Of a stretch of DNA of 64,000 nucleotides, positions 28,324-58,814 are shown one piece after another. Made by a program: the position numbers and the translations under genes. The stretch lies in NCBI GenBank assembly GCA_963819655.1, contig CAWFXA010000001.1, positions 544,001 to 608,000 of the forward strand. The letters run 5' to 3'. The DNA is from an uncultured Chloroflexia bacterium (GTDB lineage: Bacteria; Chloroflexota; Limnocylindria; Limnocylindrales; CSP1-4). The notes under the pieces were generated by a model. That model made no database searches. It saw only the letters and a list, made by a program, of their open reading frames with translations, and was not told the DNA's origin. The first letter of the stretch is position 1. Each line of letters starts with the position of its first letter.

Positions 28324-28340
28324 TCACCCGCCCCGGGTGA
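28324..28340. promoter_or_regulatory. 17-bp palindromic box 1, TCACCCGCCCCGGGTGA
   Basis: Upstream of the DUF6325-like gene; CAGATT 21 nt downstream on the minus strand. Confidence 0.75.
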
Positions 28341-28351
28341 AGGCCATGAGG

Positions 28352-28705
28352 TTAGTGCACTCGCTCGTCAGGCGCCGGGCCTCCGACCACCTGCTCCTCG
28401 AGCGCCGCTTCGACGTCGTATCCGATGGCAAGCCCCAGCTTCGGCGCGGCCGCGACCACGTGCGCGGTCCCAACGAGCGGTGCTGCCGCGATGAGGATCT
28501 CAACGAGCTCATCCTCGGTCGCTCCGGCCGCCAGCGCCACGCCGGCGGTGGTTTCGAAGGCGGTGCCGGGACCATCAACGGCGATCAGCACGGCAAGATC
28601 GAGCATCGCCCGCGTCTTCCTGTCGAGCGCCACGAGGGGCAGGTGCAAGACCCGTTCCGTGTCGTTCATCGACAGGCGCCGGAGCTTTTCTTCGTGCGGA
28701 CGCAC
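28352..28705 (-). CDS. Carboxymuconolactone decarboxylase (CMD/AhpD)-like protein
   Basis: LDRKTRAMLDLAVLIA...ALAAGATEDELVE; no CxxC. Confidence 0.75.
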   Translation of the reverse strand: MRPHEEKLRRLSMNDTERVLHLPLVALDRKTRAMLDLAVLIAVDGPGTAFETTAGVALAAGATEDELVEILIAAAPLVGTAHVVAAAPKLGLAIGYDVEAALEEQVVGGPAPDERVH

Positions 28706-28777
28706 CGCCCGGCCTCTCGTAGACGCGACGGATCCCGTCGCACCTAGATATCAAGTCACCAGGCATTCGGCACGGCA

Positions 28778-28794
28778 TCATCACAATGGGGTGA
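28778..28794. promoter_or_regulatory. Palindromic box 2, TCATCACAATGGGGTGA
   Basis: Upstream of the CMD gene. Confidence 0.6.
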
Positions 28795-28822
28795 CGGCCC
28801 ACCACCGGAGCACGGTCGGGCG

Positions 28823-31219
28823 TTACCGCCGCTCCACGGTTGCGCCGGGAGGGACCGAGCCATGATCCGCGATGGGCATCAGCTCGGTCGGCGTCTCGGC
28901 GCGGCGGTCGCCATGGAACGCGGGGTCGCGCAATGGATCAGTCAAGCCGATGGTCGCCGCCCGCGCGATGGCATCCCCGCGCGACGACACGTCGAGCTTC
29001 CGGTAGATCGACATCGTCTGGCTCTTGATGGTGTTGGATGACACACCGATCCGTTCACCGATCTCGCGGAACGACAAATAGGTCGAGAGGTATGGCAACA
29101 GGCGCAACTCCGCCGCCGTCAGCGCCGACGCCCCAACGACGACTGATGCCGCCGCGGCCGCCTGCTCTCGAAGGGTCACGATGTCGCGGGCGAGCCGGCC
29201 GAATGGCGGGAACTGGCTCAGGATGTCATTCGCCTCGCGCAACAGAGTCCGAGTCCCGGCGGCGTCGGACTGCGCCAAGGCCAGACGCGCGAGCTCGATA
29301 TCGGTCCCGACGGCAAGCCATGGGACGGCCACCGACAAGCCCGCCCGCAGCCGATGGGCGTGGGCCTGGTCCCTGGCCGCCTGGATCCGGTTTCCACGGC
29401 GCGTCGCGACGCGGGCAGTTAGGGCGAAGACAAGGCTCATGAGCGCGAGCTCGTTCAGTGAGTTGCTCAGGACGACATCGCGTGCCGTTGCGCTCAGCGC
29501 CTCGGCCCGCGCCCAGTCCCCGCGTTCGATGGCGATCATCGCTCGATAGGCCAGCGCGAGCGCTCGGCTCGACGCGGCGACCGGCGGGATCGATGCGCGA
29601 TCGGCCTCGGCCAGGGTCGCGTCCGCGGTCAGGTCATCACCGGCAAGATAGTGAGCAACCCCCAGGATGCCCAGCGCGGCCGTTCTCCTGGTGCTGAGCG
29701 ACGGGATCTGATCGACGGCGATCGCGGCATCCGCGAGCATCGACGCCGCTCCGTTCTGGGCCATGATCGCGCGACTCAACGCCAGCCAGGCGTGGATCGA
29801 ACCGCTCCCGTCGGACATCGGTCCGACGAATTCGGTCGAGGTCGCCATGTGCATCCACTGCCCCGCGCGTGATGGATCGCCGACCAGTGCGAAATAGATC
29901 GCCCCGATGACCGCGACATCGGGGTGGCGACCCATCCATGGAGCCGCCTCGACCTCGTCGAACCAGCGCTGAACGGTCGCGACGTTGCCAGCATTGAAGG
30001 CGGTCTGCGTGTGGGTCACGAGCAGGCGCGCCAAGCGTGTCTCGTCCCCAGCCAGTCGCGCGCAGTCGATGGCCTCGCCCGGGGCGCCGTGCTCCTCGAG
30101 CCAGATCGAGGCGTTGGTCGCCAGTCGGGCGATGTCGTCCGTATCGTTGCTCTCGAGGTCGGCCCGCAACAGGTCGCGAAGAAGGTGATGTTGGCGGTAC
30201 CAGACACCGCGATCGTCGAGTGGCACCATGAAGCGGTTGGCACTCTCGAGCGCCGACAGGATCGCAGCGGAGTCTGTCCGGCCGAGGACCGCATCGCACA
30301 ACGGCCCGCTCATCCGCTCCAGGAATGACGTCCGACGCAGGAACGCGACAAGATCCGGGCCGAGCGGCTCGACGATCTCGGATCTGATATACCGGGCGAT
30401 GCCGCGTGAGGTCCCTGTCAGACCGTGCGTCGTCAGGTCGCCGCGGTCGGCTGTCGCCAGGATCCCGAGGTACAGCCCGGCGAGCCAGCCCTCGGCCTGC
30501 TGGTTGAGCATCGCCGCGGTCGCCTGGTCCATCCCATGATCGATGGCCTCCGCGAGCGCGAACGCCTCCTGATCGTCGAGTGCGAGATCCGTCGAATCGA
30601 GCTCGAGAACGGTTCCCGCGACCCGCCGACGCGACAGCGCGATGGGTGGCGATGCACGGCTCGCTAGCACCAGCCGTGAGCCAGGGGGCAGGAGATCGGG
30701 CAGGGCTGTGAGCGCGTCCGCTGCTGACCCGGGGGCGAGGGTGTCCGCGTCGTCGACGAACAGGACGAGGGCTGGATGATGCTCGAGCGCTGTACTCAAA
30801 CGGGTGACGGCGGACCACGGCGAGATCGCCGGAGCGGCTAGCGCCTGGAAGACCTTCTTGTCGATCGGTCGGACGAGGTGGAGCGCCGCGGCGAGGAGGC
30901 TGACGAGTGTGGCGGGGTCGTCGTCGTGGGCGTCGAGCGAAACCCATGCCACGGCGCGCTGTTCATGGGCTGCGGCTTGGGCCAGGAACGTGGTCTTGCC
31001 ATATCCGGCGGGCGCCGAGACCCACACGACCGTGGCAGGCGAGGCCGCCAGTCGTTCCAGGAGCGCCCGACGCGTGACACTCCCGGCGCGCACCGGGGGC
31101 GGAACAGTCTTGGCCTGGACGCGGACCGCCGGGATGCCGGGTAGATGGGGGGCACGCGGGCTAGAGCGTGTGACAGCTGCGATGAATGCCTCCCCACGCG
31201 CGCCTGCAGATTCTCGCAC
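28823..31219 (-). CDS. MalT-like LuxR-family STAND transcriptional regulator (start uncertain)
   Basis: APAGYGKT Walker A; AWVSLD; VDD; EGW; C-terminal LTAAELRLL..SIYRKLDVSSR LuxR HTH. Confidence 0.9.
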   Translation of the reverse strand: MRESAGARGEAFIAAVTRSSPRAPHLPGIPAVRVQAKTVPPPVRAGSVTRRALLERLAASPATVVWVSAPAGYGKTTFLAQAAAHEQRAVAWVSLDAHDDDPATLVSLLAAALHLVRPIDKKVFQALAAPAISPWSAVTRLSTALEHHPALVLFVDDADTLAPGSAADALTALPDLLPPGSRLVLASRASPPIALSRRRVAGTVLELDSTDLALDDQEAFALAEAIDHGMDQATAAMLNQQAEGWLAGLYLGILATADRGDLTTHGLTGTSRGIARYIRSEIVEPLGPDLVAFLRRTSFLERMSGPLCDAVLGRTDSAAILSALESANRFMVPLDDRGVWYRQHHLLRDLLRADLESNDTDDIARLATNASIWLEEHGAPGEAIDCARLAGDETRLARLLVTHTQTAFNAGNVATVQRWFDEVEAAPWMGRHPDVAVIGAIYFALVGDPSRAGQWMHMATSTEFVGPMSDGSGSIHAWLALSRAIMAQNGAASMLADAAIAVDQIPSLSTRRTAALGILGVAHYLAGDDLTADATLAEADRASIPPVAASSRALALAYRAMIAIERGDWARAEALSATARDVVLSNSLNELALMSLVFALTARVATRRGNRIQAARDQAHAHRLRAGLSVAVPWLAVGTDIELARLALAQSDAAGTRTLLREANDILSQFPPFGRLARDIVTLREQAAAAASVVVGASALTAAELRLLPYLSTYLSFREIGERIGVSSNTIKSQTMSIYRKLDVSSRGDAIARAATIGLTDPLRDPAFHGDRRAETPTELMPIADHGSVPPGATVERR

Positions 31220-31396: not shown

Positions 31397-31780
31397 CTAG
31401 TCGGTCGTCGATGACCGCCCCGCGGGTGGCATCGCTCCGTTGCCACGCCGCCGCCAGGGAAGGGCTCCCTCCAGCTCGATCTCGAGCGAGAAACTCAGGA
31501 AGGTCCTGACCAACACGATGATGCCAAGGATGGCCGCGCTCTGGAGCGTCGGATCGATCGTGACGGTCAGGATGATGTCGGCGATGATCAAGATCTCGAG
31601 GCCCAGGAGGATCGACCGGCCGACGTTTCGGCGCACGGATTGATAGGCGACCGAGCGCCTACCCTGAGCGAGGAGCAAGCCCCCGCCGACCAGGGCGACG
31701 ACCGAACCCACCGCGAGCACCGCGACACCCGCGATCTCGAACACCTTGACCACGGTGTCCATCCCTTCCTGGAATGTCAT
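31397..31780 (-). CDS. DUF1622-like membrane protein
   Basis: GRSILLGLEILIIADII..IVLVRTFLSFSLE. Confidence 0.8.
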   Translation of the reverse strand: MTFQEGMDTVVKVFEIAGVAVLAVGSVVALVGGGLLLAQGRRSVAYQSVRRNVGRSILLGLEILIIADIILTVTIDPTLQSAAILGIIVLVRTFLSFSLEIELEGALPWRRRGNGAMPPAGRSSTTD

Positions 31781-31811: not shown

Positions 31812-32825
31812 TCACGACGGCCTGACGATGCACCGGAACCCGATGTGGCCCGTGCTCGTGTCGACGGTCTCGGCCTGGCGGGCAGCCGGGCGGTAGCGCA
31901 GGCAGTAGTTCGGTGCGCACAGGTGCGAGCCGCCCTTCATCACCCGGCGCGGGATGTGTTCGCCGGGCTGACCGACGCCGAATGACATCTCCGGCGACGA
32001 CGTCCGCGGGTTGTGTGGCGCGCAGCACGAGTGCTCCGCCGGGTCGCTATGGCGGGGCGTGAAGAAATCATCCGTCCACTCCCAGACGTTACCGGCCATG
32101 TCGTACAGGCCGTATCTGTTCGGTGGGAACGAGCGCACCGGCGACGTCCCCTCGAAGCCGTCCTCGAGGGTGTTCTGCCAGGGAAACTCGCCCTGCCAGG
32201 TATTGGCCAACATGCGGCCCTTCGGGGCGAACTCGTCGCCCCACACGAAGCGCGCCCCATCGATGCCCCCACGCGCAGCGAACTCCCATTCGGCCTCGGT
32301 AGCGAGCGCCTTGCCGGCCCACGTCGCGTACGCCTCGGCGTCCTCGAAGGCGACCTGGGTGACCGGATGACGGTCGCGCCCCACGATCGTGCTGTCGGGT
32401 CCCTCGGGCCGGCGCCAGCTGGCGCCGGGCACATAGGCCCACCAGTTGTGGACGTCGGTCAGGTCGACCGGACCCCGTGTCCGCTGGAAGACGAGCGCGC
32501 CGGGGACCAAAGCCGCCGGGTCGGCGCCCGGGAAGTCGGCCGGGTCCAGCGGGCGCTCGGCGACCGTGACGTAGCCGGTCGCCTTCACGAACCGGCGGAA
32601 GTCGGCGACCGTGACCGGATGCTCGTCCATCCAGAACCCGTCGACGCTGACCGGGTGGACCGGTCGCTCTTCGGGGTAGAACTCGTCGGAGCCCATGAGG
32701 AACGTGCCACCGGGGATCCAGGCCATGTTCTTGGCCGGCGCCTGGACGGCTCCTCCATCATTCACCTGGCTCGGGCCATGACCTTCTGCTAGGGGCCCCT
32801 GGAGGACGGCTGGCCGGGCGATCAC
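31812..32825 (-). CDS. Formylglycine-generating enzyme (sulfatase maturase; start uncertain)
   Basis: TEAEWEFAARGG, GNVWEW, KGGSHLCAPNYCLRYRPAAR, GFRC. Confidence 0.92.
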   Translation of the reverse strand: MIARPAVLQGPLAEGHGPSQVNDGGAVQAPAKNMAWIPGGTFLMGSDEFYPEERPVHPVSVDGFWMDEHPVTVADFRRFVKATGYVTVAERPLDPADFPGADPAALVPGALVFQRTRGPVDLTDVHNWWAYVPGASWRRPEGPDSTIVGRDRHPVTQVAFEDAEAYATWAGKALATEAEWEFAARGGIDGARFVWGDEFAPKGRMLANTWQGEFPWQNTLEDGFEGTSPVRSFPPNRYGLYDMAGNVWEWTDDFFTPRHSDPAEHSCCAPHNPRTSSPEMSFGVGQPGEHIPRRVMKGGSHLCAPNYCLRYRPAARQAETVDTSTGHIGFRCIVRPS

Positions 32826-32831: not shown

Positions 32832-35198
32832 CTATTGCCGAGCCATGGCCAGCCTAAATCGCTCCTCCGGGGTGATCAGGTGGTCGATGTCCTCGGCGGC
32901 CTCGTTGATGTCCAGCTGGACCCAGCGGATCCGTCCGTTGAATTTGCTGTCGCGTGGCTCGTAGTCGTCGCTGACCGGTGTGGCGCTGTCCCAGCCCACG
33001 TCGGTCGTCTCGTCGCCCGAGAACATCATCGGCACAGTCCCATCAACGCGCCCTTCGCCGACCTTGTTCCCGTCGACGTACAGCGTGACGTCGCCACCCT
33101 TGGCAAGCCCGCCGCCGTCGTACGTGAATTCCATCCTGACCTGGTGCTCGCCTGACGGGATGTCCGACTCGCCGTACGTCTTGAACCGTTGCAACCCGAA
33201 GAGGTTGTAGCAGTAGGCGGGTTTCCCGTCCTTCGCGTAGAGGGCAAAGCCTCCGAACGCGCCTCCCTGCGACACGATCACACCGTTCGCGGTGACGCCG
33301 TCCTCGATCGTGATCTCGGCAGTCACGGCATGTGACTTGTTCTTGATGTTGACGACAGAGTTCTCCGATAGCCGGCCCATCCCCCCGAAGAGCATCTGGG
33401 AATTGCCCCGGATGAGGCTGGGTCGACCCGCCAGGTCGGGGTTGAAGCGCTCGGCCCTCCGGTCGTCGAGCGGGAGGACGTTGTACTTGGTCGCTTCGAT
33501 GAGGAACAGGCGCTGCAGTCGAGCGAGTTGCTCCGACTGCTCGGCCGCCAGGTCACGAGACTGGGTCCAGTCGTCCGGCGCGTACAACTCCCATCGATCG
33601 TCATCGAGCGGAGGATTTTGGGCTAGGAGCCATGGGATGCTGTGGCGGGTCACCGCCGTCCAGCCCTGGTGGTAGATCCCGCGATTCACGAACATCTCGA
33701 AGTACTGGGTCGGTCGGTGCTCGGCGGCTTGGGCGTCGTCAAAGGCAGGCCGCATGCTTCGCCCGTGCATCGGCATCTGCTGGATACCGTGCACGAACGT
33801 TGGTTCGGGTAGGCCGGCCGCATCGAGGACGGTCGGCGCCAGGTCGATGACATGGCTGAACTGGCTGCGGATCTCGCCGCGCGCCTTGAAGCCGGACGGC
33901 CAGTGGACGATCGTCCCGTTGCGGGTGCCGCCCCAGTGCGACGCCACTTGCTTGGTCCACTGGTACGGAGTATCCATCGCATGCGCCCAGCCGACCGCGT
34001 AGTGGTTGTAGGCGTCGGGCGTCCCGAACTTGTCGATCCGGGCCATCAGGAACTCCGGCGTCTCGATCGTGGTGACCCCGTTCAGCGGCATCAGCTCGTT
34101 GAATGTCCCGTTCGGAGTTCCCTCGGCAGAGGCACCGTTATCGCCGATGATGTAGTAGACGAGCGTGTCGTCGAGGACCTCGAGGTCGGCGAGGGCGTCG
34201 ATCAGGCGGCCGACGTGGTGATCGGTGTGCTCGAGGAAACCGGCGTACACCTCCATCTGCCGCGCGAGGATCGGCTTCATCTCCGCCGGCATGTCCGCCC
34301 AGGCCGGGATCTCGGGGGGACGCGCCGTCAGTTCGGCGTCGGGCGGGATGACGCCAAGCTCCTTCTGGCGGGCGTATGTCTTCTTCCGGAGCTCGTCCCA
34401 ACCCTGGTCGAACTTGCCCTTGTAGCGGTCCGACCACTCGGGCCGGACATGATGTGGCGCGTGGGTCGCGCCCGGCGCAAAGTAGATGAAGAACGGCTTG
34501 TCCGCCATGAGCGCCTTCTGCTGGCGGACCCAATCGATCGCCTGATCGGTCATGTCCTCAGTGAAGTGATAGCCCTCTTCGGGCGTCCGGTCCTGCTCCA
34601 CCGGAACCGTGTTCTTATAGATCGCCGGCGCGTACTGGTTCGTCTCGCCGCCGATGAAGCCGTAGAAATATTCGAACCCGCCGCCGCCAGAGGGCCAGTT
34701 GTCGAACGGCCCCATCGGCGAGGTCTGCCAGACCGGGACCTCATGGCACTTTCCGAACTGGGCCGTGGAGTAACCGTTGAGCTTCAGCGTCTCGGCCAGC
34801 GGAGCGGCAGACTTCGGACGAAGTGAGCTGTAGCCGGGCGCCGACGTGGCGATCTCGGTGATCCCGCCCATCCCTATCGCGTGATGGTTGCGCCCGCTCA
34901 AGAGAGCTGCCCTCGTGGGCGAGCACAGGGCCGTCGTGTGGAAGCGGTTGAACTTCACGCCATTGGCGGCCAGACGTTCGGCCGTAGGGGTGAAGATCGG
35001 ACCGCCGAAGGCAGAGGAGGCGCCGAAGCCGGTGTCGTCGATGAGCACGACCAGCACGTTGGGTGCACCCTTGGGCGGTCGGAGCTCGCGGATCGGCGGA
35101 TAGCTCGTGTCCGGGTCCTTGGCATCGTAGGTCGTAAGTCCGACGTGCGTCCCGTCCGGGATCGGCAGCACGCTTCGCTGGATAGCGTCGTCGCTCAT
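32832..35198 (-). CDS. Arylsulfatase (Cys-type), no signal peptide
   Basis: PNVLVVLIDD, LCSPTRAALLSGR, GDNG. Confidence 0.93.
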   Translation of the reverse strand: MSDDAIQRSVLPIPDGTHVGLTTYDAKDPDTSYPPIRELRPPKGAPNVLVVLIDDTGFGASSAFGGPIFTPTAERLAANGVKFNRFHTTALCSPTRAALLSGRNHHAIGMGGITEIATSAPGYSSLRPKSAAPLAETLKLNGYSTAQFGKCHEVPVWQTSPMGPFDNWPSGGGGFEYFYGFIGGETNQYAPAIYKNTVPVEQDRTPEEGYHFTEDMTDQAIDWVRQQKALMADKPFFIYFAPGATHAPHHVRPEWSDRYKGKFDQGWDELRKKTYARQKELGVIPPDAELTARPPEIPAWADMPAEMKPILARQMEVYAGFLEHTDHHVGRLIDALADLEVLDDTLVYYIIGDNGASAEGTPNGTFNELMPLNGVTTIETPEFLMARIDKFGTPDAYNHYAVGWAHAMDTPYQWTKQVASHWGGTRNGTIVHWPSGFKARGEIRSQFSHVIDLAPTVLDAAGLPEPTFVHGIQQMPMHGRSMRPAFDDAQAAEHRPTQYFEMFVNRGIYHQGWTAVTRHSIPWLLAQNPPLDDDRWELYAPDDWTQSRDLAAEQSEQLARLQRLFLIEATKYNVLPLDDRRAERFNPDLAGRPSLIRGNSQMLFGGMGRLSENSVVNIKNKSHAVTAEITIEDGVTANGVIVSQGGAFGGFALYAKDGKPAYCYNLFGLQRFKTYGESDIPSGEHQVRMEFTYDGGGLAKGGDVTLYVDGNKVGEGRVDGTVPMMFSGDETTDVGWDSATPVSDDYEPRDSKFNGRIRWVQLDINEAAEDIDHLITPEERFRLAMARQ

Positions 35199-35275: not shown

Positions 35276-35292
35276 TCACCCTGTTGGGATGC
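35276..35292. promoter_or_regulatory. Palindromic box 3, TCACCCTGTTGGGATGC
   Basis: About 78 bp upstream of the sulfatase start. Confidence 0.6.
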
Positions 35293-36112: not shown

Positions 36113-36129
36113 TCACCCGTTTCAGGCGA
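36113..36129. promoter_or_regulatory. Palindromic box 4, TCACCCGTTTCAGGCGA
   Basis: CACACT 22 nt downstream, then ATG 5 nt later (leaderless). Confidence 0.6.
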
Positions 36130-38399: not shown

Positions 38400-38416
38400 T
38401 CACGTCATCGGGGTGA
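38400..38416. promoter_or_regulatory. Palindromic box 5, TCACGTCATCGGGGTGA
   Basis: About 86 bp upstream of the holin-phosphodiesterase gene. Confidence 0.55.
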
Positions 38417-38676: not shown

Positions 38677-39135
38677 TCACGCTCCTACGTTGGCGGCAGC
38701 TTCATCGGCCTGGATGGAGGCGATGATGGCCTGGATCGGGATCCGCCCATTGGCGATCAGTCGGCCACCCGAGTGGCGCGCCGCCGCAGCGAATGGCGCA
38801 GCCCACAGATTCTCCCAGATGAGGACGCCTGCCGTGCTGCCGGGCTCCATGGCCGCGGCAAGGTTCACGACGTCCTCCTCGGCCAGCAGCTCGGCCAGCT
38901 GGGCTTCGATCTGCTGCAGCTCTCCGAGCTCGTCCACATCGGACAACTCTGCCGACGAGATCGTGCCGTCCGCGTCCTTGGTCAGGATCAGGATGTCGAT
39001 CACGCGAATGGTTCCAGCGTCGGACAGCTTGACGAGCTCTCTCGCCATGTCGCCCGTGAAGTTGCTGGCACCCGCCGGAAACTCAACGATGAGATAGTCG
39101 ACGGGACCGAGTTCATCGAGGGACGCTTCTGTCAT
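38677..39135 (-). CDS. DUF6325/DUF1269-like protein (second paralog)
   Basis: GPVDYLIVEFP, GTIRVIDI, WENLWA, GRIP; AAGGA RBS. Confidence 0.78.
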   Translation of the reverse strand: MTEASLDELGPVDYLIVEFPAGASNFTGDMARELVKLSDAGTIRVIDILILTKDADGTISSAELSDVDELGELQQIEAQLAELLAEEDVVNLAAAMEPGSTAGVLIWENLWAAPFAAAARHSGGRLIANGRIPIQAIIASIQADEAAANVGA

Positions 39136-39223
39136 GCGCAGTTCCTTCACATCGGCTCGGCCGCGCGCTCCCGGTCGGGACCCGGGGCCTAGGTCAACGT
39201 ACCGTCGAACGCCGGCCTGTCCA

Positions 39224-39240
39224 TCACCTCGAACGGGTGA
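39224..39240. promoter_or_regulatory. Palindromic box 6, TCACCTCGAACGGGTGA
   Basis: TACGTT 22 nt downstream on the minus strand. Confidence 0.75.
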
Positions 39241-41106: not shown

Positions 41107-41255
41107 CCAGCGACCCGGTGGCCTCGCCCGACACGCCCGCATCGCCCGAAGAGGATGGCCGATCCCTGCGACGAGCGGCGACTCTGACCGCCGCTGTCGG
41201 GATCGCCTTCAGCGTCCTGTTCGTTTCGTATCGTGACCGGGAGGGGGGTCGCTAG
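41103..41255 (+). pseudogene. Truncated membrane-protein fragment
   Basis: GTGA-coupled to SulP; one TM segment (LTAAVGIAFSVLFV) then an abrupt end. Confidence 0.4.
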
Positions 41256-45954: not shown

Positions 45955-46049
45955 CGACCCGCCCCCGTTTCACGGGCACAGTCGGGCGGGATCACGCGAG
46001 CGCATCGTGGACGGTCAACCGGCCGCGCGGCGCAGCAGGAGGGATCACG

Positions 46050-49137: not shown

Positions 49138-49139
49138 CG

Positions 49140-50282: not shown

Positions 50283-50334
50283 CGATGCAGCGGAACCCGA
50301 TGTGGCCCGTTGCTCGTTGGCTGTCCCAGGTCGG

Positions 50335-51531
50335 CTATGTGGACGTGCGCCGCCGAGGCGAGCTCGTCGGCGCTTTGGGTGACGGTGCCCCAGGCGGCGC
50401 GTCCGTGAGCGTGTGCATGATCAGCGCGTCCGCGACATCGGCGTTGGAGCCCACCTGCACCATGGCCCTGGTATTGGCGGCCAGCGAGCGAGCGACCTCG
50501 ATCCGCTCCTCCTCGAGGTCTCGGCGTGCGGCGTTCGGGAATGCGGCCAGCCTCGACTCGAGATGCTGGAGGCGGAGCGCCTCATTGGCCGCCTCGAGCT
50601 CGATCCGTTCGCGCTGGTGGGCAACGCGCTGGCGTTCGAGCGACTCCCGGTCTGCCAGCAGTCGCTCCTCGAGCGCATGCTGCTCGGTCTGCTCGTCGCG
50701 CCGCACCGACGCGAGCCGGCGCGATTCGCGCGAAGCCATGTACTCGAGCGGCGGCTGGACGCGGATGATCACGACACGTCTGACCTCGACGCCATAGGGC
50801 GCAAGCGAGGCCTCGATCGCAGTCTGCAGGGCCGACGTGTCCGCGGACGACAGGTCGAGGATCTCGTCCGAGCGCTTCGCCCGGACGAGCGTCCTGATGG
50901 CATCGAGAGCGGACGCCTGGCAGACCTGGTCGAAGTCGGGTGCGGAGATCGCGAACACGAAGCGCTCCGGGGCCGTGATGCTGAAGGTGAGGAGCATGTC
51001 GAGATCGACCCGCACATCGTCGCGGGTCGACAACGCCGATCCAGGTGTATCGAACGGGATCTCGCGCGTCGTGACCACGTGCGACACGACGATCCAGGGC
51101 GGGACGATATGCCGCCCCGCACCGAGCGTCCGGTGGTAGCGACCGCTCTTGAGCAGCAATGCGCGCGCTCCCTCGGGGACCGGCACGATGAACGACTGGA
51201 AGACGCCCAGGAAGATGGCGACAGCGCCGACGCCGAGGAGCCCACCCCGGACGGCGACGTCGACTTCGAAGAGCAGCGCGAGCACGATGGCGATGGCGCC
51301 GGCGATGACGAACGCATTCCGGATGCGGAAGGGCTGCTTGGGCAGGACCACGATCGGGAGGCGACCGGACGGATCGGGCACGGTCAAGGCCTCGCCGGCC
51401 TCTTCGAGGGGGACGCGTGCCTGAGTCAGCTGGACCGGGACGGGCTGCGGCACGGCCGGTTCTCCGGGCGCGGCGGCCGTGGCTGGAGACGGCGCCGTCG
51501 ATGCGCCCTGAAGGGTCGGATCGTCTGCCAT
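50335..51531 (-). CDS. SPFH/band-7 membrane scaffold protein
   Basis: Two TM helices, VPEG, TRDDVRVD, YGVEV, coiled-coil C-terminus. Confidence 0.82.
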   Translation of the reverse strand: MADDPTLQGASTAPSPATAAAPGEPAVPQPVPVQLTQARVPLEEAGEALTVPDPSGRLPIVVLPKQPFRIRNAFVIAGAIAIVLALLFEVDVAVRGGLLGVGAVAIFLGVFQSFIVPVPEGARALLLKSGRYHRTLGAGRHIVPPWIVVSHVVTTREIPFDTPGSALSTRDDVRVDLDMLLTFSITAPERFVFAISAPDFDQVCQASALDAIRTLVRAKRSDEILDLSSADTSALQTAIEASLAPYGVEVRRVVIIRVQPPLEYMASRESRRLASVRRDEQTEQHALEERLLADRESLERQRVAHQRERIELEAANEALRLQHLESRLAAFPNAARRDLEEERIEVARSLAANTRAMVQVGSNADVADALIMHTLTDAPPGAPSPKAPTSSPRRRTST

Positions 51532-51544
51532 CGTGCTCAGGACC

Positions 51545-52840
51545 TCATGGGGCGGGGCTGGCGGGGCGGCTCGCGGTCCGTCCGGCGGCCACTGGTACCC
51601 GACGCCGCTGGCGATAGACCGCTGGGACGACCGCGGTCACGGTGGCCGTCGTTCGAGCCGGCAGCGGTTCACCGGGGAGCAACCCGGCCGGCCGTGCCGG
51701 TTCGGAAAGCCGACCGTGCAGGTATCGGACCAGGTCGCTCGCGAAGGCGAGGATGGGGGCCGACAACAGCAGCCAGATGATTCCGAGCTGGCTGAGCGCG
51801 ACGATCCCCGGGATCAGGACGATCGGATGCACCCCGAGCCGTCTCCCGCTGATCCGCGACCCGATGACGTTGCCGCTCAGCCAGCGGGCGCCGAGGTACA
51901 CGGCCAGGTAGACGCCGGCTCGCTCGGGATCGATCAGGAGCAGGATCGGTACCGGGATCAGTCCTAGGAACCATCCGAGCTCGGGGATGAGCTGCAGGGA
52001 ACCAGCGAGGACCGAGAGCGCGAGTGCCCCGGGAAACTCCGGTCCCCCAAGCCGCGCCGAAAGGGTCAGGCCGATGAACACCAGCAGACCGACGAGGAAG
52101 CCGACCACGACAAACCCGCGCAGGTACGTCCCCGCGGCCCGGTCCAGCATACGAACTATCGCCCAGAAGTCGGGCCGAAGCCAGCCCGCGACGCGCCGAT
52201 CGACGGCAGCCGCCCCTCGACGCTTGCTCGAGAGGACGCTCAGCACCCAGACGGGCAGGACCACGAGCCCGAGCGCCGCGCCGGCGACCCCGAGCGCCGC
52301 GTTGACGACGGCCGGGCCGAGGTCGCCCAGACCGCCGGACGCGCCGGCGAGTGCGTCCTTCACGGTCACGGCGACGGCGACGACGATGGGGCCCACGAGC
52401 TCCCTGGCTGAGTCCGGGACCTGGGCCAGCGCCCCTGCGATGAGGCGATCGATCTCGGTCGTGCTCGGGACGACCCCAGCCAGATCGACGACCGCCGCGG
52501 CCAGCGGCGGCACCACGATGACGAAGACGCCGACGACGATCGCCAGGACGGTCAGGATCGCGACCGTCGCCGCGAGGGCCCGCGGCATGAACCGGTCCAG
52601 AGTGTCGACGACGGGCAGGGCCGTGTAGGCGATGAGGCCACCGAGTGCGAAGGGCAGGAGAGCCGGCCACGTGCCCCCGACCACGGTGATCGACGCCGCG
52701 ACGACTGCGGTCGCCAGGAGGGCACGCCCTAGTGCGGCAGGGGTGACGGTGGCGAGTCGGCCACCCAGATCGGCCCAGGCTGCGTGGGCCCGCGTCCGGG
52801 CGGCTTTGCGATCGATCAGGGGTCGGGGAGCATCGGCCAT
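51545..52840 (-). CDS. AI-2E family transporter
   Basis: PFALGGLIAY..PVV, YLRG, LIPELG, VHP. Confidence 0.82.
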   Translation of the reverse strand: MADAPRPLIDRKAARTRAHAAWADLGGRLATVTPAALGRALLATAVVAASITVVGGTWPALLPFALGGLIAYTALPVVDTLDRFMPRALAATVAILTVLAIVVGVFVIVVPPLAAAVVDLAGVVPSTTEIDRLIAGALAQVPDSARELVGPIVVAVAVTVKDALAGASGGLGDLGPAVVNAALGVAGAALGLVVLPVWVLSVLSSKRRGAAAVDRRVAGWLRPDFWAIVRMLDRAAGTYLRGFVVVGFLVGLLVFIGLTLSARLGGPEFPGALALSVLAGSLQLIPELGWFLGLIPVPILLLIDPERAGVYLAVYLGARWLSGNVIGSRISGRRLGVHPIVLIPGIVALSQLGIIWLLLSAPILAFASDLVRYLHGRLSEPARPAGLLPGEPLPARTTATVTAVVPAVYRQRRRVPVAAGRTASRPASPAP

Positions 52841-52919
52841 GCGACGGTCCCCCGTGCTCGCCCGATCGATGACCGGCGGTCAGCCAGCCATCGATCTGGG
52901 CCTCGTCGATGTGTCGCTG

Positions 52920-53390
52920 CTACGACGACATCGCCTTTTGCTTGAGCGTTTCGAACTCGGCGTCGCTGATCGCACCGGCTGCCTTGAGCTCCTGGAGCTT
53001 GGCGATCTGATCCGCGACCGAGACTGACGCGGCAGCCTTCTGACCGGCTTCCACCCGGGTCATGATCTCGACATCCTGGGCGGTGACCTTCGGGCGCATC
53101 GCGATGTAGATCAAGGCGCCAAGGAAGGGCAGCAAGACCAGGACGAGCAGCCAGCCGGCCTTTGCCCCGCCCGAGAGATCGTTGCGACGGAAGATGTCTC
53201 CGAAGAGGCCGATGAAGATCCAGATGAACATGAACCAGAAGAAGAACGCGATCAGCGAGTAGATCGCGTCCCAGAACGTGAAGCTGGACGTCCCGACCGA
53301 GCTACACGCGGCAAGCAGGACGGTCATGGCGGCAAGCAACGGCACGACGGGCCGCCCGATGATCTGCCTGGCCCTGGAGAGGGTGGTCAT
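52920..53390 (-). CDS. PLDc_N-like membrane domain + SHOCT protein, with lipobox-like LLAAC
   Basis: DIFRRNDLSGGAKAGW..LPFLGALIY; QIAKLQELKAAGAISDAEFETLK. Confidence 0.82.
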   Translation of the reverse strand: MTTLSRARQIIGRPVVPLLAAMTVLLAACSSVGTSSFTFWDAIYSLIAFFFWFMFIWIFIGLFGDIFRRNDLSGGAKAGWLLVLVLLPFLGALIYIAMRPKVTAQDVEIMTRVEAGQKAAASVSVADQIAKLQELKAAGAISDAEFETLKQKAMSS

Positions 53391-53489
53391 CCGGTCCTCC
53401 TGATCAAATGCCCGGCTCATTGGCCGGCCTCGGCGCGGACGATGGCCGCCTCGCGACGACGATACTCCTATGGCAGCGGCGCGCGCACC

Positions 53490-53506
53490 TCACACCAAGC
53501 GGGTGA
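53490..53506. promoter_or_regulatory. Palindromic box 9, TCACACCAAGCGGGTGA
   Basis: About 100 bp upstream of the SHOCT gene. Confidence 0.65.
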
Positions 53507-53559
53507 AAGGGGATTTCGGGAGGCAGGGATCACTCCGCGGAGCGAGCCTCGTGTCACGG

Positions 53560-53853
53560 TCACACGGAGCGCCAGCCGCTCCGATAGCGCTGGTCTGTTG
53601 CAACGGCGGCCGTGTGCGAGATGTCGATGATCAACGCGATGCCGACCCAGATCCAGTCGGACCCGGCCAGACCGACGCCTGGGGTGTACACGAGCACATA
53701 CATGAGGGTCGTGAACGGCAGGAAGAGGATGCCCAGCAAAGGGATGATCGGCCCGCCGAATGCGGCATCGAACTGGACCGGTCGAGCCAACCAGAACAGG
53801 AAGATGACGAAGCGTGGCGAAAGCGCGGCCAACAAGGCCAACAGGCAGCCCAT
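53560..53853 (-). CDS. Small membrane protein
   Basis: Three hydrophobic segments, LFLPFTTL; GGAGG RBS. Confidence 0.75.
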   Translation of the reverse strand: MGCLLALLAALSPRFVIFLFWLARPVQFDAAFGGPIIPLLGILFLPFTTLMYVLVYTPGVGLAGSDWIWVGIALIIDISHTAAVATDQRYRSGWRSV

Positions 53854-53947
53854 CGTTCGGATCCCTCCCTATGTGTGCGATCCCACCCGACCGCGCGTGG
53901 CGGGGAGCGGGTCAATGCGATTCCATGGTCAGCGGGCTCGGGCGACA

Positions 53948-53964
53948 TCATCCGGTCTGGGTGA
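53948..53964. promoter_or_regulatory. Palindromic box 10, TCATCCGGTCTGGGTGA
   Basis: TGGAAT 22 nt downstream on the minus strand. Confidence 0.75.
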
Positions 53965-53976
53965 ATGGGCAGGCGC

Positions 53977-56325
53977 TCACTGGCGAGCCAGTGCCACGCG
54001 GATCTCGGCCTCATGGTCGACCACGTGCTCCCCGGAGACGTCGTAGACGACCCTGTCGATGGTCCCGTTGAATGCGAAGGGTGCGGGATAGGCGTCGGTC
54101 ACTGGGGCGCCGCCATCCAGCCCGATGCTGATGCCGGAGGCGAGGCCCATCGTCAACGGGATCGTGACTGGCAGCTCGCCTGATCCGATCTGTTTTCCAT
54201 CGACGAACAGCAGCGCCTTGCCCGGGGCGCCCTTGCCCTTGAGTGGTTCTGGTTTGCCGGTGGGCTGGAACTCGAAGCTCAGGGCGTGGTTGCCGGTCGG
54301 GACATCGCTATCGCTCTCGATGTGGAAGACCTGGTCTGCGACGTAGTTGTATGTGTACCGCAGCTTGCCGTCCTTGATGTAGAGCGAGAAGCCGCCGTCC
54401 ACGCCGCCCTGGCTGACGAGCACCCCCTGTGCGCCGTCCGGCAGGTTGGCGAGGACAGTGATCGTGTGCGGCCGGTTGAGCAAACGCGGTGCTGCCGCGG
54501 CCGGGACCTCCTGCGTTCCCGGGTAGTAGCGATACCGACTGCGCTCCTTGGCGATCGTCGGCCGCTCCTCGGCGAACCGCTGCTGCCCCCGCCCGTCCAC
54601 CGGCAACACGTTGTACTTGCCGGCTTCGACGTACCACAGGGCGATCATCTCGATGAGCTTGGATCGATTCTCCTTGGCGAGATCGTGGTTCTCCGCGAAA
54701 TCCTCGGCCACGTGGTAAAGCTCCCATCCCGTGGCGTCGAGCTCGGTCAGGGTCTCGGCCGGCAGCGGCGTTCCGAATGGGAGACCTTCCGCGAACGACG
54801 TACCAGGCCACGGGCAGACCGCCCGCCAGCCGTCGTGGTAGATGGACCGGTGGCCGATCATCTCGAAGTACTGGACGATGTGCTTCGAGGGCGCCTTGGC
54901 GTCGTCGAACGTGTCGGCCATGCTGACGCCCTCGATCGGCGACTGGCTCACCCCGCGGATGGAGGCCGGTGGCTCGATGCCGAGGGCGTCGAGGACGGTC
55001 GGCACCATGTCGATGGCGTGGGCGTACTGCTCGCGGATCTCGCCGCGGGCCTCGATGCCATCGGGCCACGACACGATGAACGGATCGCTGATCCCGCCAC
55101 GGTAGGTCTCGCGCTTCCAACGCCGGAACGGGGTGTTGCCCGCGAAGGTCCAGCCCCACGGATAGTGGTTGAAAAACCTCGGACCTCCGATGTCGTCGAT
55201 CGCGGCGAGGTTTTGCTCAAGTGAATCCTGGACGAAGTTGAAGAACTTGTTCTCGTTGACCGACCCCGCCGGTCCGCCCTCGGACGACGCGCCGTTGTCC
55301 GAGATCAGCATCACGAGGGTGTTGTCGAGCTCGCCAAGGTCCTTGATGAACGCGAGCAACCGGCCGATGTGATGGTCGGCATGCTCGAGAAAGCCCGCGA
55401 AGACCTCCATCATCCGGGCGTACAGCCGGCGCTCGTCCGGTGATAGGGAATCCCAGTCCTGGACGTCCGGGTCGTGGCGGGACAGCTCGGCATCCTTGGG
55501 GACGAGTCCGAGCTCCTTCTGGCGCGCGAAGGTCCGCTCCCGATAGGCGTCCCATCCATCGTCGAAGACGCCCTTGTACTTGTCTGCCCACTCCCTCGGG
55601 ACGTGGTGCGGGGCGTGCTGCGCCCCGGTCGCGAAGTACATGAAGAACGGCTTGTCCGGGGCCACCTGCTTGCCGTCGGCGATGAAGGAGATCGCCTTGT
55701 CGACCAGGTCCTCGGTGAGGTGGTAGCCCTCCTCCGGCGACTTCTCCGGCTCGACCCGATGGTTGTCGTATGTCAGTTCCGGGTAGTACTGGTGCGTATC
55801 GCCGCCGAGGAAGCCGTAATAGCGCTCGAAGCCGCGGCCGAGTGGCCATCGGGTGTACGGCCCGGCGGCCGTGACCTGGTCCGCCGGGGTCAGGTGCCAT
55901 TTCCCGATGGCGTACGTGTTGTAGCCCTCACCGCCAAGGATCTCGGACAGGAAGCCGTTCTCCATCGGGATGTAGCCGTCGTATCCAGGGAAGCCGGTGG
56001 ACACCTCGGTGATCGCGGCCATGTGGTTCGAATGGTGGTTTCGACCGGTGAGAATGCACGACCGGCTTGGCGAGCAGAGGGCGGTCGTGTGCATGTTCTG
56101 GTAGCGCACGCCATCGGCTGCGAGAGCGTCGATGTTCGGTGTGTTGATGGGGCTGCCGTAGCAGCCGAGCTGCCCATAGCCGGTGTCGTCGATGACGATG
56201 AACAGGACGTTCGGGGTACCCTCGCTCGCGCGCTGCGGTTCGGGCCAGGCCTGCGTCGACTGATCGAACGTCCGCCCGACGACACCCGGAAATGCGGTCC
56301 CGGGTCGGTATTCCTTGAGCGGCAT
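53977..56325 (-). CDS. Arylsulfatase (Cys-type), second paralog
   Basis: PNVLFIVIDD, LCSPSRSCILTGR, GKWH, SDNG; GGAGGG RBS. Confidence 0.93.
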   Translation of the reverse strand: MPLKEYRPGTAFPGVVGRTFDQSTQAWPEPQRASEGTPNVLFIVIDDTGYGQLGCYGSPINTPNIDALAADGVRYQNMHTTALCSPSRSCILTGRNHHSNHMAAITEVSTGFPGYDGYIPMENGFLSEILGGEGYNTYAIGKWHLTPADQVTAAGPYTRWPLGRGFERYYGFLGGDTHQYYPELTYDNHRVEPEKSPEEGYHLTEDLVDKAISFIADGKQVAPDKPFFMYFATGAQHAPHHVPREWADKYKGVFDDGWDAYRERTFARQKELGLVPKDAELSRHDPDVQDWDSLSPDERRLYARMMEVFAGFLEHADHHIGRLLAFIKDLGELDNTLVMLISDNGASSEGGPAGSVNENKFFNFVQDSLEQNLAAIDDIGGPRFFNHYPWGWTFAGNTPFRRWKRETYRGGISDPFIVSWPDGIEARGEIREQYAHAIDMVPTVLDALGIEPPASIRGVSQSPIEGVSMADTFDDAKAPSKHIVQYFEMIGHRSIYHDGWRAVCPWPGTSFAEGLPFGTPLPAETLTELDATGWELYHVAEDFAENHDLAKENRSKLIEMIALWYVEAGKYNVLPVDGRGQQRFAEERPTIAKERSRYRYYPGTQEVPAAAAPRLLNRPHTITVLANLPDGAQGVLVSQGGVDGGFSLYIKDGKLRYTYNYVADQVFHIESDSDVPTGNHALSFEFQPTGKPEPLKGKGAPGKALLFVDGKQIGSGELPVTIPLTMGLASGISIGLDGGAPVTDAYPAPFAFNGTIDRVVYDVSGEHVVDHEAEIRVALARQ

Positions 56326-56427
56326 GGCGCGTATCCCTCCGGCGTGTCCGTGCACGTTGGCGCAAGCCACGAGCGGTTCAGGCGAGTCGTGTCACCCGAA
56401 TTCCAACCCTCTCGGAGGCGTACCACA

Positions 56428-56444
56428 TCATCCGGTGGGGGTGA
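56428..56444. promoter_or_regulatory. Palindromic box 11, TCATCCGGTGGGGGTGA
   Basis: TGGAAT 22 nt downstream; nearly identical context to box 10. Confidence 0.75.
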
Positions 56445-56459
56445 ATGGACGCGCGAGGG

Positions 56460-58262
56460 TCAGCCCCGCAGCTCGCGCACGTTATCGATGATCGCAAGGA
56501 GCGCGACACCCGCGATCGCCGCGACGATGAGCAGCGGCAGGAAGGCGATGCCCAGCGCGATCGCTCCGAGGATGGCGAGGAGGAGCGTTAGGCGCAGGAC
56601 GAACTGGACGAGTCGGCGCCGGAACGCTGCCTCGAGCGCGACATAGCCGCCGATCGTCAGCAGCAGCGCGCCCCAGATCGGCACCAGCTCGAGATAGAGG
56701 AGGACCACCAGCACGATGAGGAGGACTCCGGCGCTGACTGCGGACCAGAACTCCACGATGCGGCCGTACTCCTGCTCTTCCCGGGGCTGCGGCCGATGGT
56801 CGTGGCGTAGGTGTGCGCGCGGGTCGCCAGCCTGGCCCCCTTCGGCTCGCGCGAGCGCCGCATGCGCCTCCTCCAGGTCATCGGCGAGCGTGGCGTCGCG
56901 GAACCGCAGCGCGGCGAGTTCGGACTCGGCGACGCGGAGGGCGAGCTCGTCCTTGGTCGGGCCGGTCTCGGCTTCGGTCTCGGCGTTGCGGACCGGGAGC
57001 GCCGCGAACGCACGACGGACGTCGACGGCCCTGGCGTCGGCCTGGTTGCCGTTGGCGACGCGTTCGGCTTCGAGTGTCGCGATGCGTTCGCGCAGGGCCG
57101 CTGGCACGCGATGCGGCGGTGGGGACTTGTCCAGGCCGAGGAACCCGAGGGGATCGTTCCAGGACTGCCGCGCCGTGGCGCTCCGCGTGTACTTCGGTCC
57201 GGCGGGAGCGCGCTCGCCGGCAAAGCGGTCTCTCGTGTCGAGCCCCCACAGTCCGCGGAAGCCGTCGATCCAGCCCGTCGTCCCATCCACGACGATCGGC
57301 GTCCAGCTGACATCGCCGCCCGGTCCGATGACCAGCCCGTCCCCCCGCGCGTAGTCGATGAACGGGATGCTCAGGGCCGTCTCGACGCTCGCCGCCAGAT
57401 CACCAGGGTCGTCCTGCCGCAGGACATCGCGCCACAGCCGACGGAGTCCTTCGAGGAAGCCGCGAACCGGGCGCATGGCGGGGAGCGGGACAGGGGTCAC
57501 GTATTCCCCGGGTTCGAAGTAGGAGGCATGCGACCCGGCGCCGGCGAAGATCACCGGATGGCCTTCGACGAACGACAGGGTCGGGTCGTCCCAGCGCCGC
57601 CGCAGATCGTCCCCGGCGTAGTCGTGCGCCGCACAGCCGAACCAGCGAGGGATCGGCTCGCCGCTGCCGGCGTCCTCGAGGACGACGAACGCCTGCTCGA
57701 GGTCGGCTTCGTGGTCGTTGGCGCCGAAGAAGGAGGACCGCCAGTCGTTCATGCAGTACACGAACAGGTAGTGGAGGACGATCCAGCCGTCGGCACGCAC
57801 GACACGGCCGTGATACACGACGCGCTGGTCGGCCTGGCGGATCGTCGCGTAGCGCTGGGCCGCCGCCGCTGCGGTCCCGCCGGGCACGCTGCCGCGCACG
57901 AGCAATGATCCGGTGAAGCCCGCATCCACCAGTCGTGCAAAGAGACCTACCCGGGCCAGGCGCCCGGGCGCCCGAAAGACCGGCCGATCCGCCCGACGAT
58001 TCCAGCGCGCCAGCGACAGCCGATCCATGGGCCTGGGCACGAAACGCAGGTACCGCTCCTCGCCCGGCACGGGCCGTTCCGCGGCGAGGTGCTCCAACGT
58101 GAGCTCGCCTGCTGGGACCTCCACGTAGGGCCGTTCGCCCGCCACCGCCAGCAGGAGGTCGCAGGCGCGCACATAGGTCTCGGCGGCCATCGGGAAGAAA
58201 TGCTCGCCTTCCGTGAACCGCACGACCGGCTCATGGCGTTGGAGCAGCGTCAGGTCATCCAT
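56460..58262 (-). CDS. Hypothetical protein: Vps62/NPP1-like soluble domain, coiled coil, C-terminal TM helices
   Basis: EHFFP, HYLFVY..ND..NDHEADLE, GSHASY, WG..GP; TGATG-coupled to the upstream gene. Confidence 0.7.
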   Translation of the reverse strand: MDDLTLLQRHEPVVRFTEGEHFFPMAAETYVRACDLLLAVAGERPYVEVPAGELTLEHLAAERPVPGEERYLRFVPRPMDRLSLARWNRRADRPVFRAPGRLARVGLFARLVDAGFTGSLLVRGSVPGGTAAAAAQRYATIRQADQRVVYHGRVVRADGWIVLHYLFVYCMNDWRSSFFGANDHEADLEQAFVVLEDAGSGEPIPRWFGCAAHDYAGDDLRRRWDDPTLSFVEGHPVIFAGAGSHASYFEPGEYVTPVPLPAMRPVRGFLEGLRRLWRDVLRQDDPGDLAASVETALSIPFIDYARGDGLVIGPGGDVSWTPIVVDGTTGWIDGFRGLWGLDTRDRFAGERAPAGPKYTRSATARQSWNDPLGFLGLDKSPPPHRVPAALRERIATLEAERVANGNQADARAVDVRRAFAALPVRNAETEAETGPTKDELALRVAESELAALRFRDATLADDLEEAHAALARAEGGQAGDPRAHLRHDHRPQPREEQEYGRIVEFWSAVSAGVLLIVLVVLLYLELVPIWGALLLTIGGYVALEAAFRRRLVQFVLRLTLLLAILGAIALGIAFLPLLIVAAIAGVALLAIIDNVRELRG

Positions 58263-58717
58263 CAGCGGTACGTCGGCTCGCCGTCGAGGTGTTGGCCGGC
58301 GATCGCCCGGACGGAGCGCTGGTTGAGATAGAACGCGCTCACGACCAGCAACAGGAGCCCGAGATGATCGGGCTGCCCGATCGATAACCTGACAAGCTCG
58401 GCGCCAAGCCCGAGACCGACGAGGATCATGGTCAGCACCCACCCCCAGCGACGGAAGGCGAGCAGGCCGACGACGCCCAGGATCGTGGCGCCAGCGATGG
58501 CGAGCTCGACGGTTTGGGTCAGGACCGGGGAGCTGGCAAGGATCGGGAGGCCCTCGACCGGCAGGGTCCCGACGCCGAGGGCGATCGCGGCGAGCGTGAC
58601 CGCGTCGAAGATCCGCAGGGCCGCGACGACCAACATCCCGAATGGCCAGCGCCCGATCCGGAACGCAGGCTCGAACGACTCGGGGTCGCGCACACCATCC
58701 GCCCGATCCAGGGTCAC
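58262..58717 (-). CDS. 4-TM membrane protein (start uncertain)
   Basis: GLLAFRRWGW, YLNQRSVR; resembles the 62870-63277 protein. Confidence 0.7.
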   Translation of the reverse strand: MTLDRADGVRDPESFEPAFRIGRWPFGMLVVAALRIFDAVTLAAIALGVGTLPVEGLPILASSPVLTQTVELAIAGATILGVVGLLAFRRWGWVLTMILVGLGLGAELVRLSIGQPDHLGLLLLVVSAFYLNQRSVRAIAGQHLDGEPTYR

Positions 58718-58797
58718 GGGGCGCGCTGCCGGAGGCGAACAGGGTGCGTCGTGCGCATCACGCAACGATGGTACGCGGGGCTGATATGCCCGACGCA

Positions 58798-58814
58798 TCC
58801 TCCGCTGCGGGTGA
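58798..58814. promoter_or_regulatory. Palindromic box 12, TCCTCCGCTGCGGGTGA, in a divergent promoter
   Basis: TACAGT 21 nt downstream on plus; TACCAT 24 nt downstream on minus. Confidence 0.7.

Follow-up and report, generated by a model that had tools for sequence, protein, structure and literature searches.

In Actinoplanes sp. SE50/110, the palindrome TCATCC-N5-GGATGA overlaps the -35 region of 17 mapped transcription start sites in a 51-gene region, and the distance between the motif's 3' end and the start site is 34.4 ± 1.0 nt (Droste et al. 2020; PMC7567727). According to the same report, a MalT-like LuxR-family gene is embedded in the region; its deletion lowers expression and its overexpression raises it, 40 of the 51 genes are activated, and the account describes no maltose-metabolism gene as affected (PMC7567727). 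The region and its boxes recur, rearranged, in four other Micromonosporaceae, and the authors liken the motif to the core GGA(T/G)GA of Escherichia coli and Klebsiella (PMC7567727). Table S3 of that work includes SHOCT, three DUF1269, AI-2E, MFS, DUF308 and class-II GATase proteins and many unnamed membrane proteins (PMC7567727). Here we describe boxes of the same kind in a 64,000-nt stretch of DNA from an uncultured Chloroflexia bacterium (the window; C1:544001-608000 of its genome, G000), where they precede the transcription units of an island of about 25 mostly poorly characterised genes. These boxes are very probably the binding sites, as predicted from the comparisons below, of a MalT-type STAND/LuxR activator, most likely the one encoded within the island itself at 28823-31219 on the minus strand.

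We scanned for the 17-nt palindromic pattern TCAYCC-N5-GGRTGA at three levels (0, at most one and at most two mismatches). An earlier, sequence-only reading of the window had listed 12 boxes, and the motif is present at all 12 positions: three are exact (28324, 53948 and 56428), seven have one mismatch and two have two (36113 and 38400). Exact matches in the window number 3 against 0.03 expected, and matches with at most one mismatch number 10 against 0.90 expected; 0 of 100 shuffles reached either count. The whole genome (3.49 Mb in three contigs) holds 31 matches with at most one mismatch, and 10 of these 31 fall within a single 30.5-kb stretch (binomial P ~1e-13). One point speaks for an origin of the clustering in chance or base composition: at two mismatches the pattern shows no enrichment (16 matches in the window against 12.7 expected, with 20 of 100 shuffles reaching 16). 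The counts at one mismatch and the recurrence of the clusters in other genomes refute that explanation, to which we give practically no weight. Because the pattern alone is not enriched at two mismatches, the boxes at 36113 and 38400 rest on their context. No match with two or fewer mismatches lies before 28324, which agrees with the earlier statement that the first 27 kb hold no box. We also built a position weight matrix (PWM) from the 12 window boxes; matches to it within the island are circular, so that only matches elsewhere count, and its best score in the window outside 27-60 kb is 11.4 bits. Further two-mismatch matches at 32859, 34868, 38526 and 41142 all score below 12 bits with this matrix; the one at 41142 alone is both intergenic and followed by a gene that could plausibly be a target.

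Genes were called by a codon-usage score trained on the long open reading frames (ORFs) of the genome and were named with Pfam. By these calls, all 12 boxes are intergenic, and on at least one side of each a start codon follows at a distance of 45-102 nt; the sequence-only reading had put them in or at the edge of intergenic regions, most of them about 70-105 bp ahead of a start codon. A hexamer of the form nANNNT begins 22-25 nt past the box in 10 of the 14 box-to-gene orientations, and TGGAAT is found in two more, in agreement with the earlier reading. The centre base of the palindrome is A or T in 11 of the 12 boxes. One box per direction is present in the divergent gap at 45.8-46.0 kb, again as first described, while the boxes at 39224 and 58798 each have divergent genes on both sides and a -10-like hexamer each way.

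The regulator gene (28823-31219, minus strand) encodes 798 amino acids, although its start may instead be at 31093. The Walker A motif of the protein, APAGYGKTT, is invariant in 8 homologues, and the alignment also shows conservation of the C-terminal helix-turn-helix. Pfam places three families on the protein: AAA_16 (31.1 bits, just below the cut-off of 32.6), nSTAND_NTPase5 and GerE (residues 699-752; 24.3 bits against a cut-off of 23.5). TPR_MalT gives no match in the window regulator at E <= 0.001; its score is 37.6 bits in the orthologue from the same-genus genome G012 and 24.7-53.5 bits in other homologues (cut-off 45). The sole relative in the PDB by phmmer is MalT itself (8bob, E 2.4e-28, residues 41-431). 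Judged from these sequence features, the protein is a MalT-type STAND/LuxR regulator of the large ATP-binding LuxR-family (LAL) class. In a FastTree phylogeny with a midpoint root, it falls in a 5-row clade (support 96) with homologues from the same-genus genomes G012, G020 and G008 and from a Chloroflexia-titled metagenome-assembled genome (MAG), and this clade is nested in a larger, otherwise Actinomycetota group. Since the tree has no true root, we draw no direction of transfer from it. The two closest homologues outside the genus (55% and 43% identity) belong to MAGs titled 'uncultured Chloroflexia bacterium', and one of these two MAGs is the one in the 5-row clade.

We then compared the island with the rest of its own genome and with genomes of the same genus. 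Among the G000 matches outside the island, one precedes an MFS gene and another, at C2:767.9-772.2 kb, heads an operon of P-type ATPase, Ppx/GppA and adenylate kinase genes. When 24 genomes of the genus were searched at the protein level, each of them gave regulator homologues, with a single close orthologue in G012 (69% identity) and several homologues at 33-38%. The box pattern outnumbered its reversed control in 41 of the 41 same-genus genomes searched (7-37 against 0-7 matches), the reversed pattern being a rough control in which codon bias is not kept. An 18-kb stretch of G012 that surrounds its 69%-identical orthologue has 6 of the 16 matches of that genome; G015 has six exact matches in a 17-kb stretch surrounding a homologue of 38% identity. 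PWM matches in 11 fetched same-genus loci are intergenic in 30 of 36 cases. The genes behind these boxes include DUF6325-SHOCT, CMD, PLDc_N-SHOCT followed by AI-2E and Band7, the holin-phosphodiesterase fusion, sulfatases, SulP, Na/H exchanger, channels, DUF1269, MgtC and MFS, in an order that differs from that of the window. Since the same families are kept behind boxes despite the changed gene order, the arrangement is regulon-like. DUF6325, SHOCT, sulfatase and AI-2E genes are the ones before which the sequence-only reading had expected boxes. The proposal that the box is the operator of the MalT-like regulator gains support from the MalT-like protein itself, from box clusters beside its homologues, from the shared families and from the predicted promoter geometry; the type of regulon is already published.

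A variant box, TCCTCC-N5-GGAGGA, occurs at 4636, 8493, 8655 and 12487 of one same-genus locus (L021, from G017) and at 14827 and 14902 of another (L024, from G010). The regulators encoded amid these variant boxes group together as sisters (support 100), and their third helix is different, which may reflect co-variation of box and helix-turn-helix in what are two regulators only.

Beyond the genus, we scanned one genome per species with a 4-sequence regulator alignment and obtained 78 loci, 63 of them with a GC content of at least 0.6. These 63 high-GC loci contain 186 matches with at most one mismatch, compared with 1 for the reversed control; at least one match is present in 49 of the 63 and at least two in 34. 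The 15 low-GC loci (from Anaerolineae, Dehalococcoidia, Ktedonobacteria and others) contain two. In the high-GC set, 165 of the 186 matches are intergenic, although the called coding fraction is 0.835. An unbiased count of perfect 6-N5-6 palindromes over the intergenic DNA of the 63 high-GC and 12 same-genus loci gave TCATCC 24 times, TCACCC 13, TCCTCC 6 and TCATGC 5, with any other at 6 or fewer. When box-to-gene orientations were anchored on the box and aligned toward the gene (n=209), half of them (50%) had A at +24 and 62% had T at +28, and immediately past the box came an asymmetric T-G-C. The nANNNT hexamer begins at +23 in 90 of the 209 orientations and at +24 in 23. A -10 element at +23 to +28 would place the transcription start near +35, the value measured in Actinoplanes (PMC7567727), and the box at about -51 to -35. 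The distance from box to start codon in the high-GC loci is bimodal, with 28 of 234 at 32-40 nt and 3 of 234 at 45-53 nt, which suggests that many regulon genes have leaderless mRNAs beginning about 35 nt past the box. Sequence comparison shows, in sum, that many high-GC soil lineages share this box together with the type of regulator and the core cargo.

The same data bear on whether the palindromes act in nucleic acid rather than through a protein, as RNA or DNA hairpins serving as terminators, repetitive extragenic palindromic (REP)-like elements or processing sites. A 6-bp stem with a 5-nt loop is possible, and five of the window boxes lie within 28 nt of the stop codon of the upstream gene, one of them overlapping it. 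It is the sequence that is kept, though, and not just the pairing, since only TCAYCC, TCCTCC and TCATGC stems are enriched among the perfect 6-N5-6 intergenic palindromes. Moreover, no T run follows the boxes, some stand between divergent genes, where no transcript ends, and two features are indicative of promoters, namely a -10 hexamer at a fixed distance and a TGC flank that is present asymmetrically, on the side of the gene. We consider hairpins an exceedingly unlikely explanation. A second possibility is that the boxes are protein sites, but operators of a repressor, for which palindromes are typical. A constant 23 nt separates the box from the -10 element downstream of it, however, so that it covers the -35 region and not the -10 element or +1; expression in Actinoplanes falls on deletion of the regulator and rises on its overexpression (PMC7567727); and proteins of the MalT family are described as activators (PMC4381067). 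Repression by this route seems very unlikely, and we retain the activator reading.

Where the boxes stand relative to regulator genes was assessed in the 52 loci whose regulator gene is complete. In 14 of these, a box is present within 300 nt upstream of the regulator, and in 16 a box is at or just past its stop codon. In six loci (L026, L038, L039, L042, L045 and L048), the box forms the last 17 nt of the regulator reading frame and its final TGA is the stop codon, so that in these loci the promoter of the next gene starts inside the regulator gene. That next gene is CMD in some of the six and has no Pfam family in others.

Several observations weigh against assigning the window boxes to the island's regulator. 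No box stands directly upstream of the regulator gene in the window, where the best PWM score is -1.0. G000 encodes regulator paralogues at C3:80902-82854, C3:90487-92661 and C2:719385-721385. A cluster in the same-genus genome G007 (4 matches in 8.4 kb) has no close homologue adjoining it, matches are absent from 14 of the 63 high-GC loci, so that regulator homology alone does not predict boxes, and 4 of the 14 window orientations carry no nANNNT hexamer at the expected place. The loci were picked by their regulator, and outside the genomes scanned whole (G000, G012, G015 and G007) the association is partly by design. The terms 'EMSA', 'mobility shift' and 'in vitro' are absent from the main text of PMC7567727, and the Actinoplanes evidence is thus genetic only. 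Three metatranscriptome runs account for shares of only 0.11, 0.06 and 0.05 of positions 52800-59800, in short assembled contigs. We set these RNA runs aside as evidence: over 40001-60000, their contigs are 90-99% alike and come mostly from relatives, and they cannot show starts, strand or level. A contig end at 53458, near the predicted PLDc_N-SHOCT start (~53455), was likewise set aside, a single end being no evidence, and we make no claim from it.

Several of these points would be accommodated if the boxes were real operators bound mainly by another protein, either a MalT-like paralogue or an unrelated factor, with the island regulator as a target or co-regulator only. With at least three more homologues, G000 has candidates for such a role, and a second, smaller cluster on its contig 3 (85.2-97.5 kb), whose slightly different boxes precede DUF1269, DUF1003 with LPG_synthase_TM, and DUF6325 genes, adjoins two of the paralogues. 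The Actinoplanes island also holds two such regulators (PMC7567727), and the window regulator itself is without an upstream box. One or more of the G000 paralogues could bind the same boxes. On the other hand, the G012 orthologue and the G015, G020 and G008 homologues lie inside their own box clusters, and a box sits at or just past the regulator stop codon in the 16 loci given above. The TCCTCC variant is associated with a single, distinct regulator pair (G017 and G010b; support 100), and no other DNA-binding family is recurrent in the clusters by Pfam annotation. A different principal binder is therefore unlikely in our judgement, and the island's own regulator remains the favoured candidate.

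For binding, activation and an inducer in this organism, we infer a mechanism by analogy with Actinoplanes genetics and with what is known of MalT and STAND activation, MalT-family proteins being activators (PMC4381067). An inducer would bind a putative repeat sensor domain of the regulator, upon which the nucleotide-binding domain would open and the ATP-bound protein would multimerise. Paired C-terminal GerE helix-turn-helix domains would then bind the two inverted GGRTGA half-sites. Placed at about -51 to -35, with its centre near -43 and overlapping the -35 region, the regulator would recruit RNA polymerase to promoters predicted to have a -10 element and no good -35. Since the site is symmetric, one box would be able to serve two divergent promoters. 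The outcome would be that about 25 genes in about 14 units are switched on, their products being two sulfatases and the enzyme that matures them, two permeases of the SulP type, channels, exchangers and AI-2E transporters, along with membrane proteins of small size.

The island genes, about 25 between 27.4 and 59.7 kb, can all be placed in 14 box-headed units. Box 1 (28324-28340, exact) lies 82 nt before a DUF6325 gene (27801-28241, minus strand), which is followed by a SHOCT gene (27463-27720, minus); CAGATT is at +22. Box 2 (28778-28794, one mismatch) lies 28 nt past the regulator stop codon and 72 nt before a CMD-family gene (28352-28705, minus). Box 3 (35276-35292, one mismatch), with GACGAT at +24, is 77 nt before a 788-aa sulfatase gene (32832-35198, minus), after which come genes for a formylglycine-generating enzyme (FGE; 31812-32825), DUF1622 (31397-31780) and possibly the regulator. 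A weak box-like sequence (32859-32875; two mismatches, 8.9 bits) lies in the 3' end of this sulfatase gene, with the start codon of FGE 33 nt further on, and could be an internal leaderless promoter or a chance occurrence. Box 4 (36113-36129, two mismatches; 17.4 bits by PWM) is 45 nt before a ZIP-like gene (35360-36067/36079, minus) and has CACACT at +23. Box 5 (38400-38416, two mismatches) is 85 nt before a gene that fuses a holin_4_2 membrane domain to a type I phosphodiesterase (36122-38314, minus), with no nANNNT hexamer at +19 to +27. The same fusion is found in the box clusters of G012, G015, G020 and G010, directly behind a box in the first two.

Box 6 (39224-39240, one mismatch) is divergent, with TACGTT at +23 and CACCAT at +24. 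It lies 73 nt from a second DUF6325 gene (38677-39150, minus), and on its other side are a SulP-STAS gene (39268 or 39424 to 41106, plus) and SfLAP (41256-41936, plus). A possible weak 13th box at 41142-41158 (two mismatches, 9.8 bits), which we did not count, lies 97 nt before SfLAP; SfLAP also stands behind a box in loci L032 and L047. Box 7 (45890-45906, one mismatch; AATCGT at +24) heads a SulP-STAS-PASTA gene (43264-45795/45846, minus) and a Na/H exchanger gene (41954-43240, minus). Box 8 (45938-45954, one mismatch; CACAGT at +23) is 95 nt before an ion channel gene (46050-46880, plus), which is followed by a fused AI-2E gene (46708/46873-49137, plus) and a further AI-2E gene (49179-50282). 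Behind box 9 (53490-53506, one mismatch; GAGTAT at +23) are PLDc_N-SHOCT (52920-53390/53420, minus), AI-2E (51545-52840, minus) and Band7 (50335-51453/51531, minus) genes, an order that recurs behind a box in G012. The island has three AI-2E genes in all, one of them internally duplicated. This duplicated AI-2E, the SulP-STAS protein with two PASTA domains and the holin_4_2-phosphodiesterase protein are unusual arrangements among the cargo.

Box 10 (53948-53964, exact; TGGAAT at ~+24) is 94 nt before a 97-aa ORF without a Pfam family (53560-53853, minus); ORFs that are likened to it by size only, near 97 aa and also without a Pfam family, adjoin boxes in G012 and G015. Box 11 (56428-56444, exact; TGGAAT at ~+24) precedes the second sulfatase gene (53977-56325/56370, minus). 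Box 12 (58798-58814, one mismatch) is divergent, with TACCAT at +25 and TACAGT at +22. It lies 80 nt from orf151 (58262-58717, minus), which is followed by orf600 (56460-58262, minus), and 77 nt from orf260 (58892-59674, plus) on the other side. None of these three has a Pfam family. Pairs of family-less ORFs resembling orf151 and orf600, by size only, occur in the box clusters of G012, G015 and G017, and Protein Atlas look-ups of orf600 and orf151 returned unnamed 'hypothetical protein' clusters only, with faint DUF2127/DUF7144 leads for orf151. A weak CYTH match was seen in orf260 (E 0.0017), and a Ppx/GppA gene (60565-61857, minus) lies just beyond the island. Other links to polyphosphate or triphosphate metabolism are a PPK gene behind a box in locus L043 and the box-headed Ppx/GppA operon elsewhere in the genome; ppk2 is noted in related regions by the Actinoplanes report (PMC7567727). 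By Pfam annotation, the island contains no maltose or maltodextrin genes and no glucosidase, amylase or arginine-deiminase genes.

The Pfam scan of first genes behind boxes in the high-GC loci covered 145 of 178. PLDc_N/SHOCT and the regulator itself are the most frequent (11 each), followed by CMD and DUF7144 (7 each), DUF6325 and DUF1269 (6 each), sulfatase (4, plus one FGE), G6PD, GH15 trehalase-like and DUF1214/DUF1254 (4 each) and cytochrome bd (3); other families occur once or twice each.

The boxes tie about 25 window genes, mostly poorly characterised, to a single switch whose promoter design can be predicted. Co-regulation thereby offers a usable clue to function for DUF6325, SHOCT/PLDc_N, DUF1269 and DUF7144, and likewise for the fused holin_4_2-phosphodiesterase and the large sulfatases that depend on FGE. 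For annotation, transcription starts, leaderless ones included, can be predicted from a box and a -10 element lying 23 nt downstream of it in genomes of organisms that cannot be cultured. The Actinoplanes type of regulon is also no peculiarity of the Micromonosporaceae. We put forward, as a tentative and rather doubtful extension, that the 'maltose-regulated region' of Actinoplanes is one case of an old cross-phylum regulon for stress or reserve mobilisation, spanning several classes of high-GC Actinomycetota and Chloroflexia-labelled soil bacteria like the present one. If this were true, small membrane proteins (PLDc_N-SHOCT, DUF6325, DUF1269, DUF7144 and CMD) would form a conserved core, which a sensor of the MalT kind would control through a single, fixed design of promoter, together with a changeable cargo of sulfatase with FGE, SulP, channels, AI-2E, G6PD, GH15 trehalase-like, cytochrome bd and polyphosphate enzymes. 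Turnover of trehalose or glycogen could supply the inducer in the form of a malto-oligosaccharide made within the cell, in which case the island would answer to the reserves or osmotic state of the cell and not to food maltose.

The LAL regulators PikD and AveR are large ATP-binding LuxR-family activators encoded within the gene set that they control. The LAL regulators of actinomycete secondary metabolism differ from the present case in that they control biosynthetic clusters; SCO6993 is another of the class. No shared palindromic TCAYCC box is known for secondary-metabolite LAL regulators. With MalT of E. coli and Klebsiella, the regulator has its architecture in common, and there is homology in the nucleotide-binding and arm domains (8bob, E 2.4e-28). 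The E. coli and Klebsiella site abuts or overlaps the -35 region, as the present site is predicted to do, and the half-site GGRTGA corresponds to the E. coli MalT-box core GGA(T/G)GA (PMC7567727), including the GGAGGA variant of G017 and G010. The E. coli boxes are described as asymmetric and in direct repeat (PMC7567727), whereas the present site is a single inverted repeat with 5-nt spacing. Because the half-site equals the E. coli core, only this arrangement differs, and recognition of the half-site, as far as the sequences indicate, is probably the same as in E. coli MalT. Of the earlier suggestion that asymmetric classical boxes imply another mode of recognition, the difference in arrangement holds, and the half-site does not fit it. 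The classical regulon also has maltose and maltodextrin targets, of which there are none among the window island genes.

A literature search found no paper on such a regulon other than PMC7567727. The Actinoplanes island and that of the window both combine the same box with a MalT-like LuxR regulator encoded inside a set of tens of poorly annotated genes, often for membrane proteins, the two regulators being likened through the description in PMC7567727. The predicted placement of the box here equals the placement mapped from start sites there, with overlap of the -35 region and a 3' end about 35 nt from the start. SHOCT, DUF1269/DUF6325, AI-2E and MFS families are shared between the window with its relatives and Table S3, and class-II GATase, DUF308 and amino-acid permease are also common to Actinoplanes and other loci or relatives. 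In both systems, gene order is shuffled among relatives while the boxes stay before genes. The differences lie in the number of regulators (two in the Actinoplanes island, one here), in the host lineage and in the boxes, since those in the window, unlike those of Actinoplanes, tolerate Y/R at half-site position 4 and have TCACCC as commonly as TCATCC. The window island further carries two sulfatases with FGE and two SulP permeases beyond the Actinoplanes set, and also a channel, a ZIP-like protein and a Na/H exchanger. The type of regulon has already been published for Actinoplanes, and the window is the same type in another lineage with different cargo.

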